From a virus (Duplodnaviria > Caudoviricetes), in the IMG/VR virus record IMGVR_UViG_3300038608_000011, positions 13,678 to 77,677 of that record: DNA of 64,000 nucleotides; one strand, given 5' to 3'. Positions 2,333-13,762 of this stretch are shown piece by piece (position 1 is the stretch's first letter; each line of letters begins with the position of its first letter). A program made the translations under genes and the position numbers. The notes below the pieces were generated by a model. That model worked only from the letters and a program-made list of their open reading frames with translations, searched no databases and had not been told where the DNA came from.

Positions 2333-3265
2333 ATGGGTAAACTTTTAGTTTTAGATTGTGATACGATTTTGTACAGCTCAGCTGCAATGCACCAAGAAAA
2401 TAAATGCAATGTAATCCATAAATCATCTGGACGTGAAAAACTCTTTGATTCAAAAACATCATTTAATGATTGGATCAAGTCTCAAGATAAGTGGACTAAA
2501 GATGAATTTGATTTTCAAGTTGTAAGTTCTATTGTTGGTGAAACTCGATTTGCTTTTCAATCAATCAAACAAAAGATTGAAAACATTCTTGAAGCAACTA
2601 AATGTACAGATTATAAAATTTGTATTGAAGGGGAGGGGAACTTCCGTAAAGACTTTGAATCCAAATATGTCCAATATAAATCTCATAGACCACCTAAACC
2701 ACTGTTGTTTGAAGAGTGCAGAGAGTTTGTAGTTAAGAAATACAAGAAGCAATTAGTAGAATCTGTACAGCGGGAAACTGACGATTCATGTAATATTTAC
2801 GCTTGGGAAAGTTATGAAAAAGCTTTGAAGTCTAAGAATAAAGATGGTGCAAATGTCATACTCGCGGCCTGCGACAAGGACTTGTTTGCAAATAGCCGAG
2901 GCTGGATGTTCAACTACTTCAAACCAGAGAAGGGGGTGTTCTGGAACGATGCCTTTCAACAGTCCTACAACTTCGCTACGCAGCTTTTGACTGGGGATAA
3001 TGCAGATGCTATCCCTGGTATTGAAAAGCTCTCAGACATCACTAGGGAACGTTTTAGCATCAAGACGAAGGGTGTTGGTCCTGCTACAGCTACAAAGATT
3101 CTTGCTGAATGTAAAACTGAAAGGGATTTAGCACAAAGAGTTTATGAATGCTATTCAGCAGCTTGGGAAGAAGATTGGGATGATAGGTTGAATGAGAATG
3201 GATTCTTTCTTTATTTGCTACGTAGTGAAAAGGATAAGTGGAATATGGATAGGTATTTGGAATGA
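2333..3265 (+). CDS. 5'-3' exonuclease (T7 gp6/FEN-like)
   Basis: LVLDCD, ETDD, CDKDL and LLTGDNADAIPGI (H3TH) motifs. Confidence 0.9.
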   Translation: MGKLLVLDCDTILYSSAAMHQENKCNVIHKSSGREKLFDSKTSFNDWIKSQDKWTKDEFDFQVVSSIVGETRFAFQSIKQKIENILEATKCTDYKICIEGEGNFRKDFESKYVQYKSHRPPKPLLFEECREFVVKKYKKQLVESVQRETDDSCNIYAWESYEKALKSKNKDGANVILAACDKDLFANSRGWMFNYFKPEKGVFWNDAFQQSYNFATQLLTGDNADAIPGIEKLSDITRERFSIKTKGVGPATATKILAECKTERDLAQRVYECYSAAWEEDWDDRLNENGFFLYLLRSEKDKWNMDRYLE

Positions 3266-6125: not shown

Positions 6126-6626
6126 ATGGTGATGTCACCGCTTGACGATGGGGATGTTTGTTTAATGAAAGTGGGCTTAAATTATCCGTTTAGAATAAAC
6201 GATCAGATAGTTGTAATTGGGCAACCTAACTACGTTAAAGGTACAGTACAAATTTGTAGTTATCCTTTTGAAGACAACTGGAAAATGAACATTCACACTG
6301 TTTCTTTTGGAGATATTGGTCCTGTACTTTGGAATAGGTTTGAAGAGGTTGTGGAGAAAACAAAAACAAAGGATATGATCAATTCACCCAACCATTATAT
6401 TCTCTTCAATAAAGATGAGATTGAGGGAGATTCGATTGAAGTGAAGCATGTAGTGAAGGCTATTCTTGAGCGTTGGGAAAGCCAAGAAAATATTTCATTT
6501 GATTTCTATCAAGCAGGTTGTTACAAGGAACTTCTTCAATATCTTCTACGTGCTCCTTTGAAGAATAATATTGAAGATGTACAGAAAGCTGAATACTACT
6601 TGAAAGAGATTATCAATGAGTGGTAA
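6126..6626 (+). CDS. DUF3310 (T7 gp1.7-like nucleotide kinase) domain protein
   Basis: INSPNHY...YLLRAPLKNNIEDVQKAEYYL. Confidence 0.75.
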   Translation: MVMSPLDDGDVCLMKVGLNYPFRINDQIVVIGQPNYVKGTVQICSYPFEDNWKMNIHTVSFGDIGPVLWNRFEEVVEKTKTKDMINSPNHYILFNKDEIEGDSIEVKHVVKAILERWESQENISFDFYQAGCYKELLQYLLRAPLKNNIEDVQKAEYYLKEIINEW

Positions 6627-7167
6627 AAGACAGCTTGCGATTGATGTAGACAACACAGTAATTGATACAAACCAAGGATGGTATGACTATTTGAAGTATT
6701 ACAATGGTCTCGCGAAGATGGTTAAACGGGAAGATGGGATGCTTCCTTACAATCTAGCTGAAATATTTCCGTCTGTACAGGAACCTATGTTATACTGGAA
6801 ACAGCTTGATTACTTCCAATTTGAGCCAATAGAGGGTAGTGTACGAGTACTGGAAATGCTTTCGCAATATTTTGATATTGTATTCTTGAGCCAACAAAGC
6901 GGGACACATGGACGTTCTAAATACTATTGGCTTGAGGAGTGGTTTCCGTTCAAGAAGGCTGTTGTACTTACGCATGAGAAGTTTGTATTCAACGATGCTG
7001 TTGTAGCGCTTGTAGATGATAGGAAAGAGCATCTGAAAGGCTTCGACCTTAACAAGCGGATATTGTTTGACACACCGTATGATCAAAGTGTAGAGTGTGA
7101 TGTAAATATGGTGATTAATAAATGGAGTGATGAAGTTGTTGAAAGAATTTGCAAGGAGTATCTATGA
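6616..7167 (+). CDS. HAD-family 5'(3')-deoxyribonucleotidase
   Basis: LAIDVDNT motif I, LVDD motif IV, LFDTPYD. Confidence 0.85.
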   Translation: MSGKRQLAIDVDNTVIDTNQGWYDYLKYYNGLAKMVKREDGMLPYNLAEIFPSVQEPMLYWKQLDYFQFEPIEGSVRVLEMLSQYFDIVFLSQQSGTHGRSKYYWLEEWFPFKKAVVLTHEKFVFNDAVVALVDDRKEHLKGFDLNKRILFDTPYDQSVECDVNMVINKWSDEVVERICKEYL

Positions 7168-7340
7168 ATCTACCATCTGAAAGGTACTTTGAGCTAGTGA
7201 AAACAGAAGAAGATTATGCTATGTTTATATCCAGCGGAATGAGTTTTGAGGTTGAATCATTTTGCCCATTCTCTTGGCAAGAACACTTGAGTATGGTAGA
7301 GTATAAACAGAATTTAGAATTGAATAAGGAGGAAGAATGA
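7164..7340 (+). CDS. hypothetical protein
   Basis: ATGA-coupled ORF with GGAG RBS. Confidence 0.6.
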   Translation: MNLPSERYFELVKTEEDYAMFISSGMSFEVESFCPFSWQEHLSMVEYKQNLELNKEEE

Positions 7341-8395
7341 TACAGATTAAAGTTGAATACCTGCGACATAGCGGGGATGACCTTGCTGTAGTAGATGCTG
7401 CGAGAACTTCTTTTGATAAGCAGAGTGAGTGGGACTACTCTTGTGATGAGATGTGCTTCACTTGTGTTTGTGGTGGACGAAATAAGAAACTGAAATCTTC
7501 GGATGAAAAACTTATCAAGTACCTCGCAAACCACAAGCATTATTCACCATTTAATCATAGCTTCATTAGTGTTCGTGTTACAGCTCCGGTATTTGTAGCA
7601 CGACAACTTGTCAAGCACAAGTTTATGCCATTTAACGAGGTGTCACGTCGTTATGTTACTGATACGCCAGAATTCTACAAGCCTGACCGCTGGCGCAAGG
7701 CAGCCCCAAATGTAAAACAAGGATCTTCTGCAACAGAGTTTGTAGATATTATTAACAGTAAATGGAAGCGTGATGAAGGTACACCAAGTGAACGACGCAA
7801 CCCTTGCACTATCAAGTTTGCACGTCTGGGGTGGAGAGTAAAGGCAGAAGGTCTTCCGTTTGATCTAAACATTGAAGATGTTGAGTGGAATGAAGTTTGC
7901 CCTTTGATGAATATCCCACTAAACTATGATGTTTCACGAGGTGGTATTTTTGATGATACCCCTACCTTTGACAAAATTTACCCTGACAAGGGGTATGTAA
8001 AGGGGAACGTTCGAGTTATTAGTGATTTGGCTAACCGAATGAAAAGCTCAGCCACGCCAGAACAACTAGAAACATTTGCACGGGCTACATTGTTGGAGTG
8101 GAAAGGTGAAGTGGGTTGTGGTCAAAGTCCTGAGAAGTTGGCTCAAGCAAGCCTTAAAGAATATGAACGGCTTTTGTCTTTAGGCGTGTGTGCCGAACAA
8201 GCCAGACAAGTTCTTCCACAATCGATGATGACGACATGGATTTGGAGCGGTACATTGGGGGCCTTCTGTGATATGCTTGTTCTTCGTCTTGATGAACATA
8301 CTCAATATGAAACACGAGTAGTTGCACAACAAGTGGCAGAGATTGTTAAAGAGTTGTTTCCTGTAAGTTATGTGGCTTTAGTAGAGGATAAATAA
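7337..8395 (+). CDS. thyX: flavin-dependent thymidylate synthase with in-frame HNH-type domain insertion (aa ~140-260)
   Basis: VDAARTSF, HYSPFNH, ARQLVKH, NEVSRRY, EQARQVLPQS, HTQYETR motifs; insert aligns to ORF 11722-12195. Confidence 0.92.
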   Translation: MIQIKVEYLRHSGDDLAVVDAARTSFDKQSEWDYSCDEMCFTCVCGGRNKKLKSSDEKLIKYLANHKHYSPFNHSFISVRVTAPVFVARQLVKHKFMPFNEVSRRYVTDTPEFYKPDRWRKAAPNVKQGSSATEFVDIINSKWKRDEGTPSERRNPCTIKFARLGWRVKAEGLPFDLNIEDVEWNEVCPLMNIPLNYDVSRGGIFDDTPTFDKIYPDKGYVKGNVRVISDLANRMKSSATPEQLETFARATLLEWKGEVGCGQSPEKLAQASLKEYERLLSLGVCAEQARQVLPQSMMTTWIWSGTLGAFCDMLVLRLDEHTQYETRVVAQQVAEIVKELFPVSYVALVEDK

Positions 8396-8396
8396 A

Positions 8397-8606
8397 ATGT
8401 TTGATCAACACGGTAACATAGAAGAACGAGATGATTATTCTCTTCCTGCTTGGGCAATGGATACAGTAAACATAATCAAACAAAGGGAGTTTCTTCCAGA
8501 TAAGTCAGGAGCCTTTCTGATCTTTATTGAGAATCTTACAGAGTTTCTAGATTGTTATTACTCTGGCCAAAGTCCATACGAATCGTATCGTGAAATGAAA
8601 GAATAA
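8397..8606 (+). CDS. hypothetical protein
   Basis: 69-aa ORF in operon. Confidence 0.65.
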   Translation: MFDQHGNIEERDDYSLPAWAMDTVNIIKQREFLPDKSGAFLIFIENLTEFLDCYYSGQSPYESYREMKE

Positions 8607-8615
8607 GGGGAATAT

Positions 8616-8987
8616 ATGAGTAGTACAGGTTTTTCGCTCTCGCTCTATGATCTAATTCAAATAGATAAATTCAAACAAGCTATTAAGGACGGGGACCAGA
8701 AGAAAGCAGAAGAAGTGTTGCATGAGAATGGCCTGGCCGTTGGCCTCGGCTACGAGCAAGTAGTATGTACACATCGTTGTCTTACTAGAAAGGAACCGTG
8801 GTACGGCGTACGATATGAAGGGTCAGAGCGCACAGATAAAGAATTCTTAGCCACAGGATCGGCTAGTCTTGACGCTCATATTGCAAGCTCTGGGGATATG
8901 ACTCTTCGTAAAGAATTGAAGAATATGAGCAAGACAAGTGAAAGCGTTTCAACAAACGAATTTAAGGAATGGGGAGAAGAGGATTGA
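8616..8987 (+). CDS. hypothetical protein
   Basis: 123-aa ORF with RBS, coupled to nrdB. Confidence 0.75.
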   Translation: MSSTGFSLSLYDLIQIDKFKQAIKDGDQKKAEEVLHENGLAVGLGYEQVVCTHRCLTRKEPWYGVRYEGSERTDKEFLATGSASLDAHIASSGDMTLRKELKNMSKTSESVSTNEFKEWGEED

Positions 8988-9976
8988 CGGATGTAAAGAC
9001 AAGAATTCAAACACCTAAGTCAACCTTCACAGTGGATTATCCCGAAGCTGTAGAGTTTATGAACAAACAACAAGCTGTCTTCTGGCCACACTTTGAGGTT
9101 AAGGTTGGGAAGGATAAACAAGACATTTTAGTCAACATGACAGAGGCAGAGAGTCACGGGACAATTGAAACCTTAAAGCTGTTTAGTAAATATGAGCAGA
9201 TTATTGGGAATGAATTCTGGATTAACTTTGTAATGAAGAAGTTCCCACGTCCTGCTGATATTCAACCGATGGCTGCAATGTTCGGTGCAATGGAGCTGGC
9301 GGTCCACCAGAAGTTTTATAGTACGTTGAATGAGGAGCTTGGGATTGCGACTGACAGTTTCTACAACGAATACTTGGAAGACCCTGAATTGAAGCAGCGC
9401 ATTGAGTTTATGGAAAACACCTTGTCTGCTAAAGATGATTTACGTGCTTTGGGTTGTTTCGTGTTTGGTGAAGGTGCAATTCTTTACTCTAGCTTTGCTT
9501 TCTTGAAGCACTTCCAGAGTCAAGGGAAGAATAAACTTTTGAATGTTGTAAGTGGAATCAACTTCTCTGCCCGTGATGAACATTTGCACTCGGAAGCAGC
9601 AGCGTGGTTATTTCGTACGCTTCTTCAAGAGAAGATTGAAGCTGGGTTGATTAGTGAACAAGAGCAAGAAGAGCTTAAACAAGATATTTATGAAGCTGCA
9701 CATACTGTAGATTTACACGAAAAAGCTATCATCAAGAAGATTTTTCAGAAAGGTAAAATCGATGGTATTACAGATGTACAACTAGAGTACTTTGAACAGA
9801 GTCGTATTAATCTTTGTTTGCGAATGCTTGGGTATGACAATTTGTTTAAGGTGGAGTATAACCCAATTGCTGAATACTTCTATAAAGGGATCAATGGTTA
9901 TTCATCGATAGACTTCTTTAATAGCCAAGGTAATCAGTACCAAAGAGATTGGGATTCTGAAGGGTTTAAATTTTAA
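8984..9976 (+). CDS. nrdB: ribonucleotide reductase class Ia beta subunit
   Basis: E..VHQKFY, EGAILYSSFA, RDEHLH di-iron motifs; probable TTG start at 8984. Confidence 0.93.
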   Translation: MTDVKTRIQTPKSTFTVDYPEAVEFMNKQQAVFWPHFEVKVGKDKQDILVNMTEAESHGTIETLKLFSKYEQIIGNEFWINFVMKKFPRPADIQPMAAMFGAMELAVHQKFYSTLNEELGIATDSFYNEYLEDPELKQRIEFMENTLSAKDDLRALGCFVFGEGAILYSSFAFLKHFQSQGKNKLLNVVSGINFSARDEHLHSEAAAWLFRTLLQEKIEAGLISEQEQEELKQDIYEAAHTVDLHEKAIIKKIFQKGKIDGITDVQLEYFEQSRINLCLRMLGYDNLFKVEYNPIAEYFYKGINGYSSIDFFNSQGNQYQRDWDSEGFKF

Positions 9977-9987
9977 AGGGGAATTGA

Positions 9988-11676
9988 GTGACAAACAGTT
10001 ATCGTGTTTTGAGTGATGAACGTAAGAAGCTACAAGAAGAGGGGTTGATGCCTGCTCACTGGTCTACGGGATCGTGGCAGCTATTTAAGAATAAATATTT
10101 ATACCAAGCCTCTAATCCAAGAGAACAATATCAACGTATCGCAGCTACATTGGCAGTACATACACCAGACCCATCTCATTGGAAGGAGAAGTTCTTTGAT
10201 ATTATGTGGAAAGGGTGGCTAAGTCCAAGTACACCGATTCTTGCTAATACAGGGACGAATCGTGGTCTACCAGTTAGTTGTGCTGGTAGTTATGTTCCAG
10301 ACAGTATTGATGGTATTTATAAAGCAAAGCATGAAACTGCAATGCTTACTAAGATGGGGTTTGGTACAGCAGGTTATTTAGGGGATGTTCGGCCACGAGG
10401 TACACCAATCACTGTAGGTGGTAAGTCTACAGGCGTTCTGCAAGTGATTGAGGGCTTCCAAAGTGATATGGAGTATGTAGCCCAGGGGACAGCTCGACGT
10501 GGCTCCTGGGCAGGTTATCTGCCTATTGATCACGGAGACTTTGATGAAGTGTGTACCTATCTGGAACAACACCCAGATGGTAACAATATAGGCTGGAACA
10601 TCTCAGATGAGTTTATTGAACGTCTAAAGTCTGGAGATGCCGATGCAATCAAACGTTATGGTAAAGCTCTAAAGACTAAGATGGTTACGGGGAAGGGATA
10701 CTTCTTCTTCCCTCAAAAGGTAGAACGTAAACGTCCACAGTGGTATGTTGATCAGAACCTTGATGTTAAGTCGCCTCAGTTGTGTAATGAGGTTATGCTT
10801 CATTCAAGTAAAATCTTTACTTACACTTGTGTACTTGCTTCAATGAATGATGAATTGTTCGATGAGTGGTGCGGTACAGATGCTGTGTTTACAGCCATTG
10901 TGTTTCTAGATGCTGTTTGTCAGGAATTCATTGAACGGGCTAAGAACATCCCTGGCCTTGAGAAAGCTGTAGCGTTTACAAAGAATAGTCGTGCTTTGGG
11001 GTTAGGTCAGTGTGGTCTTCATTCATACATGCAAAAGAATATGATTGCATTTGAAAGCTTTGAAGCTCATATGATCAACAACAAGATTGCTAAATATATT
11101 CAAGATGAAGCGATTAAAGCATCTGAATGGCTTGCAAGTGTTTGGGGTGAACCGAAGTGGATGAAAGGCTATGGACGTGCTAACACTCACCTAATTGCAA
11201 TCGCACCAACTAAATCAACCGCACTTATCATGGGTGGTGTTAGTGAAGGTATTAACCCAGACACAGCTATGGTTTATAATCAGAAGAGTGCAGGCGGCGA
11301 GGTTGATCGAGTTAACCCTTACCTTCTAAAACTGATGAAAGAGAAAGGTGTATTCACTAAAGCCAATGTAGAAGATATTCGTGACAAGATGGGCAGCGTG
11401 CAACACGTTGAGTGGCTCACCGATGATGAGAAGCTTGTATTCCGTACGGCATTTGAAATCAATCAACATACAATCATTCGCATGGCTGCTGCTCGCGGCA
11501 AGTTTATGGATCAGTGGCAATCATTGAACTTGTTCTTTGCTGCTGGTGAAGATGAGGCCTATATTAACGAGGTGCATAAGGAAGCCTTCTTGAATCCTGA
11601 CATTCTTGGCTTGTACTACGTTTACAGCATGGCAGGTGTGCAAGCCAGCAAGGACGAGTGCCTAGCTTGTCAATAA
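9988..11676 (+). CDS. nrdA: ribonucleotide reductase class Ia alpha subunit (no ATP cone)
   Basis: SPSTP, PVSC, QLCNE, CVLAS, IAIAPT, C-terminal CLAC. Confidence 0.95.
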   Translation: MTNSYRVLSDERKKLQEEGLMPAHWSTGSWQLFKNKYLYQASNPREQYQRIAATLAVHTPDPSHWKEKFFDIMWKGWLSPSTPILANTGTNRGLPVSCAGSYVPDSIDGIYKAKHETAMLTKMGFGTAGYLGDVRPRGTPITVGGKSTGVLQVIEGFQSDMEYVAQGTARRGSWAGYLPIDHGDFDEVCTYLEQHPDGNNIGWNISDEFIERLKSGDADAIKRYGKALKTKMVTGKGYFFFPQKVERKRPQWYVDQNLDVKSPQLCNEVMLHSSKIFTYTCVLASMNDELFDEWCGTDAVFTAIVFLDAVCQEFIERAKNIPGLEKAVAFTKNSRALGLGQCGLHSYMQKNMIAFESFEAHMINNKIAKYIQDEAIKASEWLASVWGEPKWMKGYGRANTHLIAIAPTKSTALIMGGVSEGINPDTAMVYNQKSAGGEVDRVNPYLLKLMKEKGVFTKANVEDIRDKMGSVQHVEWLTDDEKLVFRTAFEINQHTIIRMAAARGKFMDQWQSLNLFFAAGEDEAYINEVHKEAFLNPDILGLYYVYSMAGVQASKDECLACQ

Positions 11677-11683
11677 CTTTTAA

Positions 11684-11708
11684 AGCCCCTTAATTGGGGC
11701 TATTTTTA
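11684..11708 (+). terminator. Rho-independent terminator after nrdA
   Basis: GCCCC-ttaatt-GGGGC then tattttt. Confidence 0.7.
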
Positions 11709-11721
11709 TTTAAGGTTTAAA

Positions 11722-12195
11722 ATGGAATTAATAAAGAATAGAGAAGGTTGGCTAGTAAATGAAACACACAGACAATGTACAAATTGTTTAGTTATTTATG
11801 AAAGAACAAGTCCAACAGTCACTTTATGTAATATTTGTAATTCAGGTAGGGTTAAGAGTCAATCTCCTGAAATCAGGATGTGGAGACGTGCTAAAGCCAG
11901 GGTTGTGAAATCTGGAGTGCCTTTTGATATTGAAGTATCTGATATTATCATTCCTAAACTCTGCCCTATTCTAGGGATACCTCTCGTGGTCTACAGAGGC
12001 AGGCCTGGGGGAGAAAACAATTCCCCAGCACTTGATAGGATTGACAACACGCTGGGATATGTGAAAGGGAATATTCAAGTGATTAGCCACTTAGCCAACT
12101 GCATGAAAAGCTCTGCTTCACCTGAACAATTGGTGAAATTCGCACAGTGGGTGCTTGAGACCTATGAGACACATGCCTCTGCAAGAAATGTTTAA
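11722..12195 (+). CDS. free-standing HNH-type homing endonuclease
   Basis: CTNC/CNIC Zn motifs; SPALDRID..GYVKGN..VISHLAN.MK. Confidence 0.85.
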   Translation: MELIKNREGWLVNETHRQCTNCLVIYERTSPTVTLCNICNSGRVKSQSPEIRMWRRAKARVVKSGVPFDIEVSDIIIPKLCPILGIPLVVYRGRPGGENNSPALDRIDNTLGYVKGNIQVISHLANCMKSSASPEQLVKFAQWVLETYETHASARNV

Positions 12196-12202
12196 AAGAA
12201 CC

Positions 12203-12231
12203 TTGACGAATCTCTAAACGTCTGCAATACT
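12203..12231 (+). promoter_or_regulatory. possible sigma70 promoter
   Basis: TTGACG-17-AATACT, followed by a GCCCTG/CAGGGC hairpin. Confidence 0.4.
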
Positions 12232-12289
12232 AGCCCTGTGTCCTAATCAGACCAGGGCATTTTTCTACATAAATTTTAGGAGAAACAAA

Positions 12290-12806
12290 ATGAATCTAGT
12301 ACAATGGTTGGCTGTTGAGTTTGAAGAGAAGAAAATTGATTTTACCCAGTGGCCTGAAGATGCTGAGACAATCTCACAGGACAACTATGAAGTGACTATT
12401 GAGGGTTGTGCTTGCATATGTACAGAAACTCTATGATACTATCAAAGACAAAGAGACTATCGGAATTCCGATGTACTATGTTGAGAAACAAGCTCTGGTT
12501 CAAGGGATTGATGATAGATACTCAGATGATGTTGACCTAGATGCAGCTCATCAGCTACGCTTGCGAGACTTGGAAGAGTTGCTTTGGGTATTCTCAGATA
12601 ACGAACCAAATATCAAGGATTATGACTTTCATATGGGCTTTGTTTTCGGGGAGAAAGAAGAGGGTGCTGTAGGAGTACCTTGTACTATCACCTGTACAAA
12701 TGATACAGAGAGGGATCGTTACCATGTAGACCAAGAAGTTTACTGGGAACGTAAAATTGCAGGGTACGAATTGAGTGGAAAGTTGTGGCGAGAATTGCAG
12801 TGGTAA
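12290..12806 (+). pseudogene. hypothetical gene apparently split by a +1 frame discontinuity (ORFs 12290-12436 and 12399-12806)
   Basis: Strong RBS only on the upstream 48-aa ORF; downstream frame opens at 12396 with no clear RBS. Confidence 0.4.
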
Positions 12807-12835
12807 TTCGTTAAATTATCAGGAGGAATAGTAAG

Positions 12836-13762
12836 GTGGAATTTCGCAGATTTAGTAGCCTAGAAAACACGTACAGAGGGAACTTGATTGACAAGGTTCA
12901 ATATGAAGGAAAAGATGGTGGTTTGTGGATGGCCACGGAGAAGCTGCACGGTGCCAATTTCAGCTTCTGGTGTGATGGTACAGAAGTAAAGGTTGCATCT
13001 CGTACACAGTTTGTTGATGGGACATTCTATAATTGTCAGGCTGTGATTAATTGTTATTCTCAAGGTATCCTTGATTGGTGTATTGAGAAGGGTGTTAAGA
13101 GTTTTATTGCATACGGTGAACTATTTGGCGGTAATGTTCAGAAAGAAGTCAAATACGGGGAGAAAGATTTTTACGCTTTTGATCTTGTAGTTGATGGTAA
13201 AGTTCTAGATAAGCATACTGCTCAAAGCGTAGCTGATGATTGCGGCCTATTCTTTGTACCTGTCCTTAAAGTGGGTACATTTGCCGAGTGCTTAGCTCTA
13301 TCAAACACGTTTAAATCAACACTGACACCAGAGGGTTACGAAGAAGAGAACACGTCAGAAGGTCTTGTAATTGAGCCTGTAGAACCAGCTTGGTTTAACA
13401 ACGGAAGCCGTATCTACTTCAAGAATAAGACTGAAGGGTTTAGTGAGAAGAATCGTCAACCAAAAGAGAAACAAGTATTTGAGTTGTCAGAGGAAGAGTC
13501 TGATTTAATGAATGTGCTTCTTGAGTACAACACAGAACAACGGGTTTCTAACGTAATCAGTAAGATTGGTCAGATCACTAACAAAGACTTCGGTAAGATT
13601 CTTGGCCTTACTGTGCAGGATATACTGGAAGATTTTACTAAAGACAATGATTACGATGCTAAAGCACACGCAGAAGGGAACTGGAAACAATTCCATAAGC
13701 TGTTGTCTGCTGAAGTTGGTAAAACAGTTCGTGTTGAGTTTCTAAAGCAACTGGAGGAATAA
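12836..13762 (+). CDS. RNA ligase, T4 Rnl2 family
   Basis: TEKLHGANF, YGELFG, YAFDL, EGLVI, YFKNK motifs. Confidence 0.93.
   Translation: MEFRRFSSLENTYRGNLIDKVQYEGKDGGLWMATEKLHGANFSFWCDGTEVKVASRTQFVDGTFYNCQAVINCYSQGILDWCIEKGVKSFIAYGELFGGNVQKEVKYGEKDFYAFDLVVDGKVLDKHTAQSVADDCGLFFVPVLKVGTFAECLALSNTFKSTLTPEGYEEENTSEGLVIEPVEPAWFNNGSRIYFKNKTEGFSEKNRQPKEKQVFELSEEESDLMNVLLEYNTEQRVSNVISKIGQITNKDFGKILGLTVQDILEDFTKDNDYDAKAHAEGNWKQFHKLLSAEVGKTVRVEFLKQLEE

Follow-up and report, generated by a model that had tools for sequence, protein, structure and literature searches.

To our knowledge, homing endonuclease genes have been thought to persist in essential genes solely by means of a self-splicing intron or intein, or else to reside between genes. 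The seg and mob genes of T4 and mobE, which splits nrdA in Aeromonas phage Aeh1, are free-standing homing endonuclease genes of phages. In this study, we analysed the thymidylate synthase gene thyX in a 64,000-nucleotide (nt) stretch of virus DNA, referred to here as the window, which is part (positions 13,678 to 77,677) of the 77.7-kb IMG/VR virus record IMGVR_UViG_3300038608_000011 and to whose own numbering all coordinates given below refer. The ThyX protein encoded there carries a large number of extra residues in a surface loop of variable length, and we suggest, with a probability of about 0.7, that they represent a mobile, unspliced, in-frame nuclease cassette of the homing type, which belongs to the PacI-like branch of the His-Me finger nucleases.

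Among published cases the ShiLan domain, a 'hidden HNH' insertion in the DNA methylase gp65 of mycobacteriophages, comes closest (Gosselin et al., 2023, PMC9957025; Arsenault, Gosselin & Gogarten, 2025, PMC11855218). According to a secondary source, rps3 is fused in frame to a LAGLIDADG endonuclease open reading frame (ORF) in mitochondria of the Ophiostomatales (Gibb & Hausner, 2005, as related in PMC7902536). PacI is a His-Me finger nuclease without a catalytic His, in which a Tyr in the loop between the two strands serves as base or nucleophile and the metal is held by an Asp and an Asn (PMC5714182, PMC4081073, PMC3384342); PacI-like enzymes make up 'group 20' of the His-Me finger classification of Jablonska et al., 2017 (PMC5714182). 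Full-text literature searches returned no paper on a ThyX with a nuclease domain inside it.

An in-frame insert in a ThyX loop

The gene and its insert comprise the following features.

7337..8395, plus strand: thyX ORF, encoding the ThyX-nuclease chimera, 352 amino acids (aa) in a single uninterrupted frame
7337..7747, plus strand: ThyX N-terminal core, aa 1-137, with the invariant columns common to insert-free relatives
7613-7654, plus strand: ThyX motif KHKFMPFNEVSRRY, within the N-terminal core
7715-7729, plus strand: KQGSS, within the N-terminal core
7748..8122, plus strand: in-frame insert, aa ~138-262, consisting of linker, helix, predicted beta-beta-alpha-Me core, C-terminal helix and linker
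7964..8050, plus strand: predicted catalytic beta-beta-alpha motif TFDKIYPDKGYVKGNVRVISDLANRMKSS, with D212, K213 (at the His position), Y220, N224, S229, N233 and K236
8123..8392, plus strand: ThyX C-terminal core, aa 263-352, corresponding to residues 134-217 of PDB 6j61 and positions 113-191 of Pfam Thy1

The Pfam family Thy1 (PF02511) matches the ORF in two stretches around the insert (expectation value, E, 9.8e-40), and ThyX structures in the PDB match it with a best E of 3e-26. In the alignment with 6j61, query residues 47-132 correspond to chain residues 36-121 and query residues 267-350 to chain residues 134-217, and a 12-residue loop of 6j61 takes the place of the ~125 extra residues in the window protein. 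An AlphaFold model of the chimera, for which 62 relatives were used as input, has a predicted local distance difference test score (pLDDT) of 83 and a template modelling score, normalised to the target, of 0.75 to T. maritima ThyX (1o27). Within this model pLDDT is 76-93 inside the nuclease domain and 52-64 in both linkers (~aa 137-150 and 255-262); modelled in this way, the insert is an independently folded domain between two flexible linkers.

Because the ThyX loop is variable, the boundaries of the insert (nt ~7748-8122) are uncertain by a few codons on either side; the initial annotation, which was made from the sequence alone, had placed them at 7754-8116. It had also stated that the extra residues can be aligned without gaps to a free-standing ORF at 11722-12195 and had named the motifs G[LV]PFD, CP[IL].., D[KR]I, GYVKGN and ANxMKSSA[TS]PEQL. 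Both statements are borne out, in that 41 of 86 residues are identical in a gapless alignment (48%, E 3e-24), which greatly exceeds what chance would give, and all of the motifs are present. Among the 120 best-scoring ThyX clusters at 90% identity, which served as our survey set, 42 have an insert at this same position, bounded by KQGSS.. and ..S-x-E..Y..LL and 118-157 aa in length, whereas the other 78 are insert-free with a loop of 11-24 aa; no loop of intermediate length was found among the 120. The inserts form several subtypes, some of them with a zinc ribbon.

As is the case for inteins, the insertion is in frame and lies in a conserved nucleotide-metabolism gene, a Ser or Thr often follows it (S264 in SPE in the window), and a real intein is present in NrdA of a related phage, so that one might think of a segment that is removed by an intein of an unrecognised type or by RNA processing. 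However, searches of the ThyX ORF against Pfam at E<=1 gave Thy1 as the sole match and no Hint, intein or LAGLIDADG domain, and searches of positions 6500-13000 against Rfam at E<=1 gave no intron, the one sub-threshold small RNA match lying outside thyX. Across the 42 inserts the junction residues are unconserved, with neither a conserved Cys or Ser at the start nor a His-Asn at the end, and the frame runs through both junctions in every one of the 42 variants. Furthermore, the nuclease fold and its linkers account for the whole insert and therefore leave no room for a Hint domain of ~130 aa or a ribozyme core. We consider cryptic splicing very unlikely for these reasons, and on the sequence level the initial proposal, in which a ThyX loop tolerates a domain inserted in frame and devoid of splicing machinery, has held.

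A repeat search at the insert found no target-site duplication and no terminal inverted repeats, only short two-copy matches. An imperfect direct repeat of 11 nt, ACAAGCCTGAC / ACAAGCCAGAC, is located at 7677-7687 and 8197-8207, near both ends of the exchanged tract described further below; it probably arose by chance, because the same 700 nt hold other two-copy matches of that size.

A PacI-like domain without the catalytic His

In the model of the chimera, strands at residues 209-213 and 225-229 are followed by a helix at 230-237, with a pLDDT of about 90 there, and the insert, when modelled by itself (pLDDT 85), shows a strand-strand-helix arrangement at model residues 74-99. On these models the fold of the insert is beta-beta-alpha-Me, which places it in the His-Me finger superfamily; structure prediction had been proposed beforehand as a check of precisely this fold. 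The initial label 'HNH-type' is imprecise, since the first His of a canonical H-N-H domain is replaced by K213 and the insert falls into the His-less, PacI-like branch of the superfamily. The PHROGs collection assigns the insert to phrog_3322 'endonuclease' (E 1.9e-24), with weaker matches to endonuclease VII and HNH families, and this collection alone gave a name: neither the insert nor the free-standing ORF found a match in Pfam or NCBIfam, even at thresholds of E<=1 and E<=0.1.

PacI came out on top in each of three types of search, although none of the three matches is strong. With the insert-only model, Foldseek gave PacI (3ldy) as the top match (E 0.026, probability 0.99, 119 columns), and VIA-align against representative structures again ranked PacI (3m7k) first (Z 6.1 over 109 residues, root mean square deviation 7.5 A). 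The HNH nucleases Gme HNH, McrA, Cas9 HNH, Hpy99I and Endo VII come after PacI in the structural match lists. A profile built from 32 family members found PacI as its sole, weak match in the PDB (E 1.4). The profile alignment pairs slDRid..GYvkGN..viS..ANrmK of the family with vDRsd..GYspqN..laC..CNriK of PacI, that is, D-R..GY..N..N..K in both. Designed TPR proteins, which appeared as PDB matches of the free-standing ORF in a single-sequence search, were rejected as spurious.

The residue that follows the Asp, usually the catalytic His, is Arg in 216 members of the wider family, Lys in 56, Gln in three, Glu in one and His in none. The D212, Y220, N233 motif is kept in 41 of the 42 ThyX inserts, and the Tyr is present in all 41 motif matches. 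By analogy with PacI, the insert would be a His-less nuclease with a mechanism of the Tyr type, and its membership of the PacI-like family is borne out in part. The family is large, with 14,271 clusters at 50% identity (E<=1e-3). We retrieved 147 new representatives (P0121-P0267), which are the best 150 of the search minus three ThyX rows that were already included, and 114 of them carry tandem double copies of the domain, often behind helix-turn-helix domains. This suggests, on the analogy of the PacI homodimer, that the working unit of the family is a pair of domains.

Distribution, exchange and selection

Alignment to related ThyX sequences had been expected to reveal a patchy distribution, and this is what was found. 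L004/L008, L007 and L009, the phages whose gene order and sequence are most similar to the window, lack the insert; their nrdB-nrdA DNA is 79-80% identical to that of the window, and the DNA homology of the window thyX to insert-free relatives ends at 7722 and restarts at ~8181. A scan of IMG/VR with the window protein returned close relatives that were all insert-free. A scan of 185,579 prokaryote genomes gave 67 loci, none with the long form, and among the isolated phages of the phage collection none has the insert inside thyX, the match in phage Bobbio being a free-standing gene. As far as the searched collections show, the arrangement is known from uncultured phages only. The window itself stems from a metagenome assembly, in which a chimeric contig might have arisen; however, the allele was found without differences in contigs of three runs (X1, X2 and X3) and as a 95% identical variant in another study, and independent assemblies contain ten further members of its cluster and the 41 other insert-bearing clusters. 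We regard the chance of an assembly artefact as negligible.

The history of the insert differs from that of the enzyme that carries it. In a ThyX-core tree of 62 rows from which the insert columns had been removed, the window protein (P0001) and P0011 fall into a clade with 20 insert-free ThyX proteins (support 100/96). When the tree is built from the inserts, P0001 joins P0002-P0010 (98/94) and P0011 is placed with P0059 and P0107 (100/99), and the cores of all of these partners fall away from the P0001/P0011 core clade. The same conflict is seen in pairwise identities.

P0001-P0011: core 76%, insert 36%
P0001-P0009: core 65%, insert 80%
P0081-P0094: core 83%, insert 36%
P0081-P0040: core 75%, insert 82%

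On the core alignment, the insert groups {P0001-P0010} (p 0.012) and {P0011, P0059, P0107} (p 0.025) are rejected by approximately unbiased (AU) tests; a grouping of P0001 with five of its insert relatives is not rejected (p 0.18). Purely vertical inheritance of the inserts is excluded.

The decisive result comes from the DNA itself, which points to a recent event. We compared public contigs with positions 7000-8700 and found, in run X5 of another study, an insert-bearing contig (record 9) that is 95% identical overall to the window allele. In another X5 contig, 210 different letters stand between 7629 and 8185, where the window has 555; this contig is 115 codons shorter and therefore represents an insert-free allele from the same run as the filled one. 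The differences between the window and record 9 are distributed as follows.

7559-7681: 14 differences in 123 nt, nearly all at third codon positions
7682-8187: seven differences in 506 nt
8188-8358: 11 differences in 171 nt

The central segment can be described as one feature.

7682..8187: tract that was exchanged recently, comprising the insert with ~65 nt on its upstream side and 65-80 nt on its downstream side; identity to L096/X5 record 9 is 98-100%

The tract differs significantly from the flanking parts of thyX (7/506 versus 25/294 differences, Fisher p 1.6e-6). The allele of record 9 is also present on L096, a 90-kb contig, and along thyX the identity of the window to L096 rises and falls again.

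Codons 1-60: 63% of nucleotides, 45% of third positions
Codons 61-115: 85% of nucleotides, 58% of third positions
Codons 116-137: 100% of nucleotides, 100% of third positions
Codons 138-257 (insert): 98% of nucleotides, 98% of third positions
Codons 258-284: 98% of nucleotides, 93% of third positions
Codons 285-351: 88% of nucleotides, 73% of third positions

In a 60-nt profile the identity is below 0.5 outside thyX, increases to 0.8-0.9, reaches 0.97-1.00 at the insert and declines again, and beyond thyX a blastn comparison of the window with L096 gave one 310-nt stretch only, with 65% identity (window 2438-2745). Since synonymous sites are included in the identity, constraint at the protein level cannot explain the tract. 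A tract of ~500 nt was thus exchanged recently between two different phages, because its synonymous sites are nearly identical while the genomes can otherwise barely be aligned, and a pattern of this kind is what homing with co-conversion would leave behind.

When the syntenic relatives are compared with the window, NrdA (window 9003-11676) is 92-94% identical whereas the ThyX core is 76-79% identical, and several recombination breakpoints are located in thyX. To judge from these values, thyX is a hotspot of exchange relative to its neighbour genes.

Relatives of the insert also occur as free-standing genes, one of them in the window.

11722..12195, plus strand: free-standing paralog of 157 aa, downstream of nrdA, with an N-terminal CxxC..CxxC ribbon and a PacI-like domain

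The window genome has two copies of the PacI-like domain only, the thyX insert and this ORF. The protein is 81% identical to its syntenic counterpart in L004/L008 and 87% to that in L009, and L007 has no counterpart downstream of nrdA, though its NrdA is 92% identical; the ORF looks like a resident, patchy, free-standing gene of the homing type. The initial annotation had suggested that the insert might derive from this nearby paralog. This suggestion has to be given up: the identity of the insert to the paralog is 48%, compared with 80-81% to other thyX inserts, and the insert DNA is 98% identical to that of L096, whereas the paralog ORF is syntenic in L004 and L009. In the Streptomyces phage Targaryen (L005:1339-2473, genes 24 and 23), a free-standing family member annotated as 'HNH endonuclease' lies directly upstream of thyX with a 14-nt overlap, and the adjoining thyX is insert-free. 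The PacI-like family is therefore linked to thyX by more than one arrangement. L096 differs in its gene order, with nrdA preceding nrdB, and at 7658-10507 it encodes a NrdA of 949 aa with a classical intein and a LAGLIDADG endonuclease. Spliced and, as it appears, unspliced selfish insertions are thus found in one gene module of L096.

A reading in which the insert is an ancient structural domain of this ThyX subfamily, inherited, lost once and immobile, has to be weighed against these data. A single split that separates cores with the insert from cores without it is not rejected in the AU test (p 0.43), and 40 of the 42 cores that carry an insert fall outside the clade of insert-free proteins. 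Because the single split is not rejected, the deep history may consist of one old gain and one loss. An immobile domain is nevertheless most improbable in our view, as the tree of the core and that of the insert contradict each other at nodes that are strongly supported in both, a 98-100% identical tract is embedded in thyX genes of 63-88% identity from genomes that are otherwise unalignable, and a filled and an empty allele were found in the same metagenome.

The insert is not a decaying remnant. Between the window and a distant insert-bearing phage, L003, the proportion of synonymous differences is 0.85-0.89 and thus saturated throughout, so that the synonymous rate gives no date; the nonsynonymous rate (dN) is 0.15 in the insert, 0.11 in its beta-beta-alpha part and 0.32-0.36 in the core of ThyX. 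Read in frame, the insert is under strong purifying selection, because its dN is below that of the core. Such selection would also be expected of a domesticated accessory domain that is useful to the phage and moves between thyX alleles by ordinary homologous recombination alone. This is the main rival of the reading that we favour; possible benefits might be the degradation of host or competitor DNA to feed the synthesis of deoxythymidine monophosphate (dTMP) from deoxyuridine monophosphate (dUMP), the exclusion of co-infecting phages or the tethering of ThyX to DNA.

Several observations weigh against a mobile homing cassette, and most of them would suit such a useful domain. None of the 42 inserts is a degenerate or intermediate-length copy and the predicted catalytic motif is almost always kept; one would not usually see such an absence of decayed copies in a nuclease gene that is purely selfish, and it agrees with a useful function too. 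The evidence for a mosaic comes from one allele pair, as L096 and X5 record 9 carry the same allele. Further breakpoints exist in thyX away from the insert, as shown by L096 and L097, which are 94% identical in the C-terminal core and 85% in the insert, and a single deep origin, as discussed above, is not rejected by the core alignment. As to the PacI-like assignment, the similarity to PacI is weak and the Tyr mechanism is assigned by analogy, and the window insert has neither of the two Cys4 zinc motifs of PacI, its only Cys residues being C156 and C188; an N-terminal CxxC..CxxC ribbon is found in the free-standing ORF and in the insert subtypes of 148-157 aa but not in the window insert.

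On the other hand, the closest syntenic relatives manage without the insert, insert subtypes swap in near-identical cores, identity is highest at the insert and in short tracts on either side of it, and family members also occur as patchy free genes beside thyX or nrdA, as homing genes do. We therefore consider domestication alone unlikely, though the two explanations are not exclusive, and continue to favour a homing-type cassette. The spread to uninterrupted thyX alleles that had been proposed at the outset gains in weight from the patchy distribution, the discordant trees and the shared tract of ~500 nt, whereas the nuclease activity and the homing of the chimera are what we infer from the sequences.

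The host enzyme and comparison with known systems

The ThyX that harbours the insert has the motif KHKxxxxNEVSRRY instead of RHRxxSxxxxSxRY, with H94, S103, R104/R105 and Y106 invariant, and both flanking Arg residues of RHR are Lys in all 62 aligned relatives, insert-free ones included. This phage subfamily of ThyX thus has a variant active-site motif, whether the insert is present or absent. A second variable loop of ThyX (7442-7471, aa 36-45) has the Cys-rich sequence CDEMCFTCVC and a model pLDDT of 64-75; it is shared by some insert-free relatives (P0018, P0019, P0024 and P0029, CDGMCF[ST]C.C), while others have unrelated loops of 0-40 residues, and it may be a small metal-binding loop. 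The genes around thyX, in the order NT5C, thyX, nrdB, nrdA, the free-standing ORF 11722-12195 and an Rnl2-type RNA ligase, form a nucleotide-metabolism module. The ligase, which adjoins the module at 12836-13762, is of the T4 Rnl2 type (Pfam RNA_ligase and T4_Rnl2_C).

ThyX is a tetramer. We propose that the chimera would be made and remain unspliced, and would still form an active ThyX tetramer that produces dTMP. The tetramer would pair the nuclease domains, as hinted at by the PacI homodimer and the tandem family members, and the paired domains would cut the insert-free thyX of co-infecting phages near the KQGSS and loop codons. Recombinational repair would then copy the cassette together with short flanks, that is, with co-conversion, and the element would persist because it is tolerated as an extra domain, not through splicing. 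In this scheme ThyX would be the scaffold of a splicing-free homing element, its tetramer supplying dimerization, and one protein would combine a thymidylate synthase with a site-specific nuclease for insert-free thyX; we give this more specific proposal an even chance.

What sets the locus apart is that a metabolic enzyme appears to tolerate a complete nuclease as an additional domain, that this arrangement is widespread in uncultured phages and that the DNA bears signs of recent transfer. The insert also marks a place where ThyX tolerates large insertions. Should the chimera cut empty thyX alleles, a splicing-free mode of homing would be established, and with it a tractable one-gene model in which complementation of thyA and cleavage could both be read out. 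It would also add a large nuclease family, PacI-like and of the Tyr type, which is uncurated in Pfam and NCBIfam and possibly has new long recognition sites.

The ShiLan domain and the thyX insert are alike in being read through in frame in a phage gene, in having no detectable intein or intron and in their homing-like patchiness; both involve a nuclease of the HNH superfamily and are predicted to protrude from the host protein. In ShiLan, however, the nuclease is out of frame, the host protein has the loop only and the methylase gene that hosts the insertion is dispensable, whereas in the case of thyX the nuclease, predicted to be His-less and PacI-like, would be translated within ThyX, and dozens of diverse lineages of phages have this arrangement. 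With PacI (PDB 3LDY/3M7K) the insert shares the predicted beta-beta-alpha-Me core, the D-R..G-Y..N..N..K pattern, the lack of a catalytic His and the Tyr in the inter-strand loop, and neither the PacI group nor the insert group has a Pfam family, both being mainly viral. PacI differs in standing alone as a homodimeric restriction enzyme and in having two Cys4 zinc sites, whereas the window insert is embedded in another enzyme and has neither of these zinc sites.

Inteins with homing endonucleases, such as the LAGLIDADG-containing intein in NrdA of L096, are in-frame and selfish and reside in conserved genes of the deoxynucleotide module, as the thyX insert appears to do, and they spread by homing with co-conversion, which we propose for thyX as well; however, inteins excise themselves by means of a Hint domain, which the thyX insert lacks. 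The T4 seg and mob genes and mobE of Aeh1 likewise target nucleotide-metabolism genes of phages, home without an intron and with co-conversion of the flanks, and are patchy, but they are separate ORFs that lie between genes or split a gene, while the thyX insert is fused into its putative target protein. The rps3 fusion, as far as the secondary source describes it, also has a homing endonuclease in frame with the host gene and no splicing element; it differs in being organellar, of the LAGLIDADG type, restricted to a few fungal taxa and not nested in an enzyme loop. In sum, we regard the feature as real: it is a nuclease element of the homing type that remains, in frame and unspliced, within the enzyme that is its target, and related kinds of element are already known.

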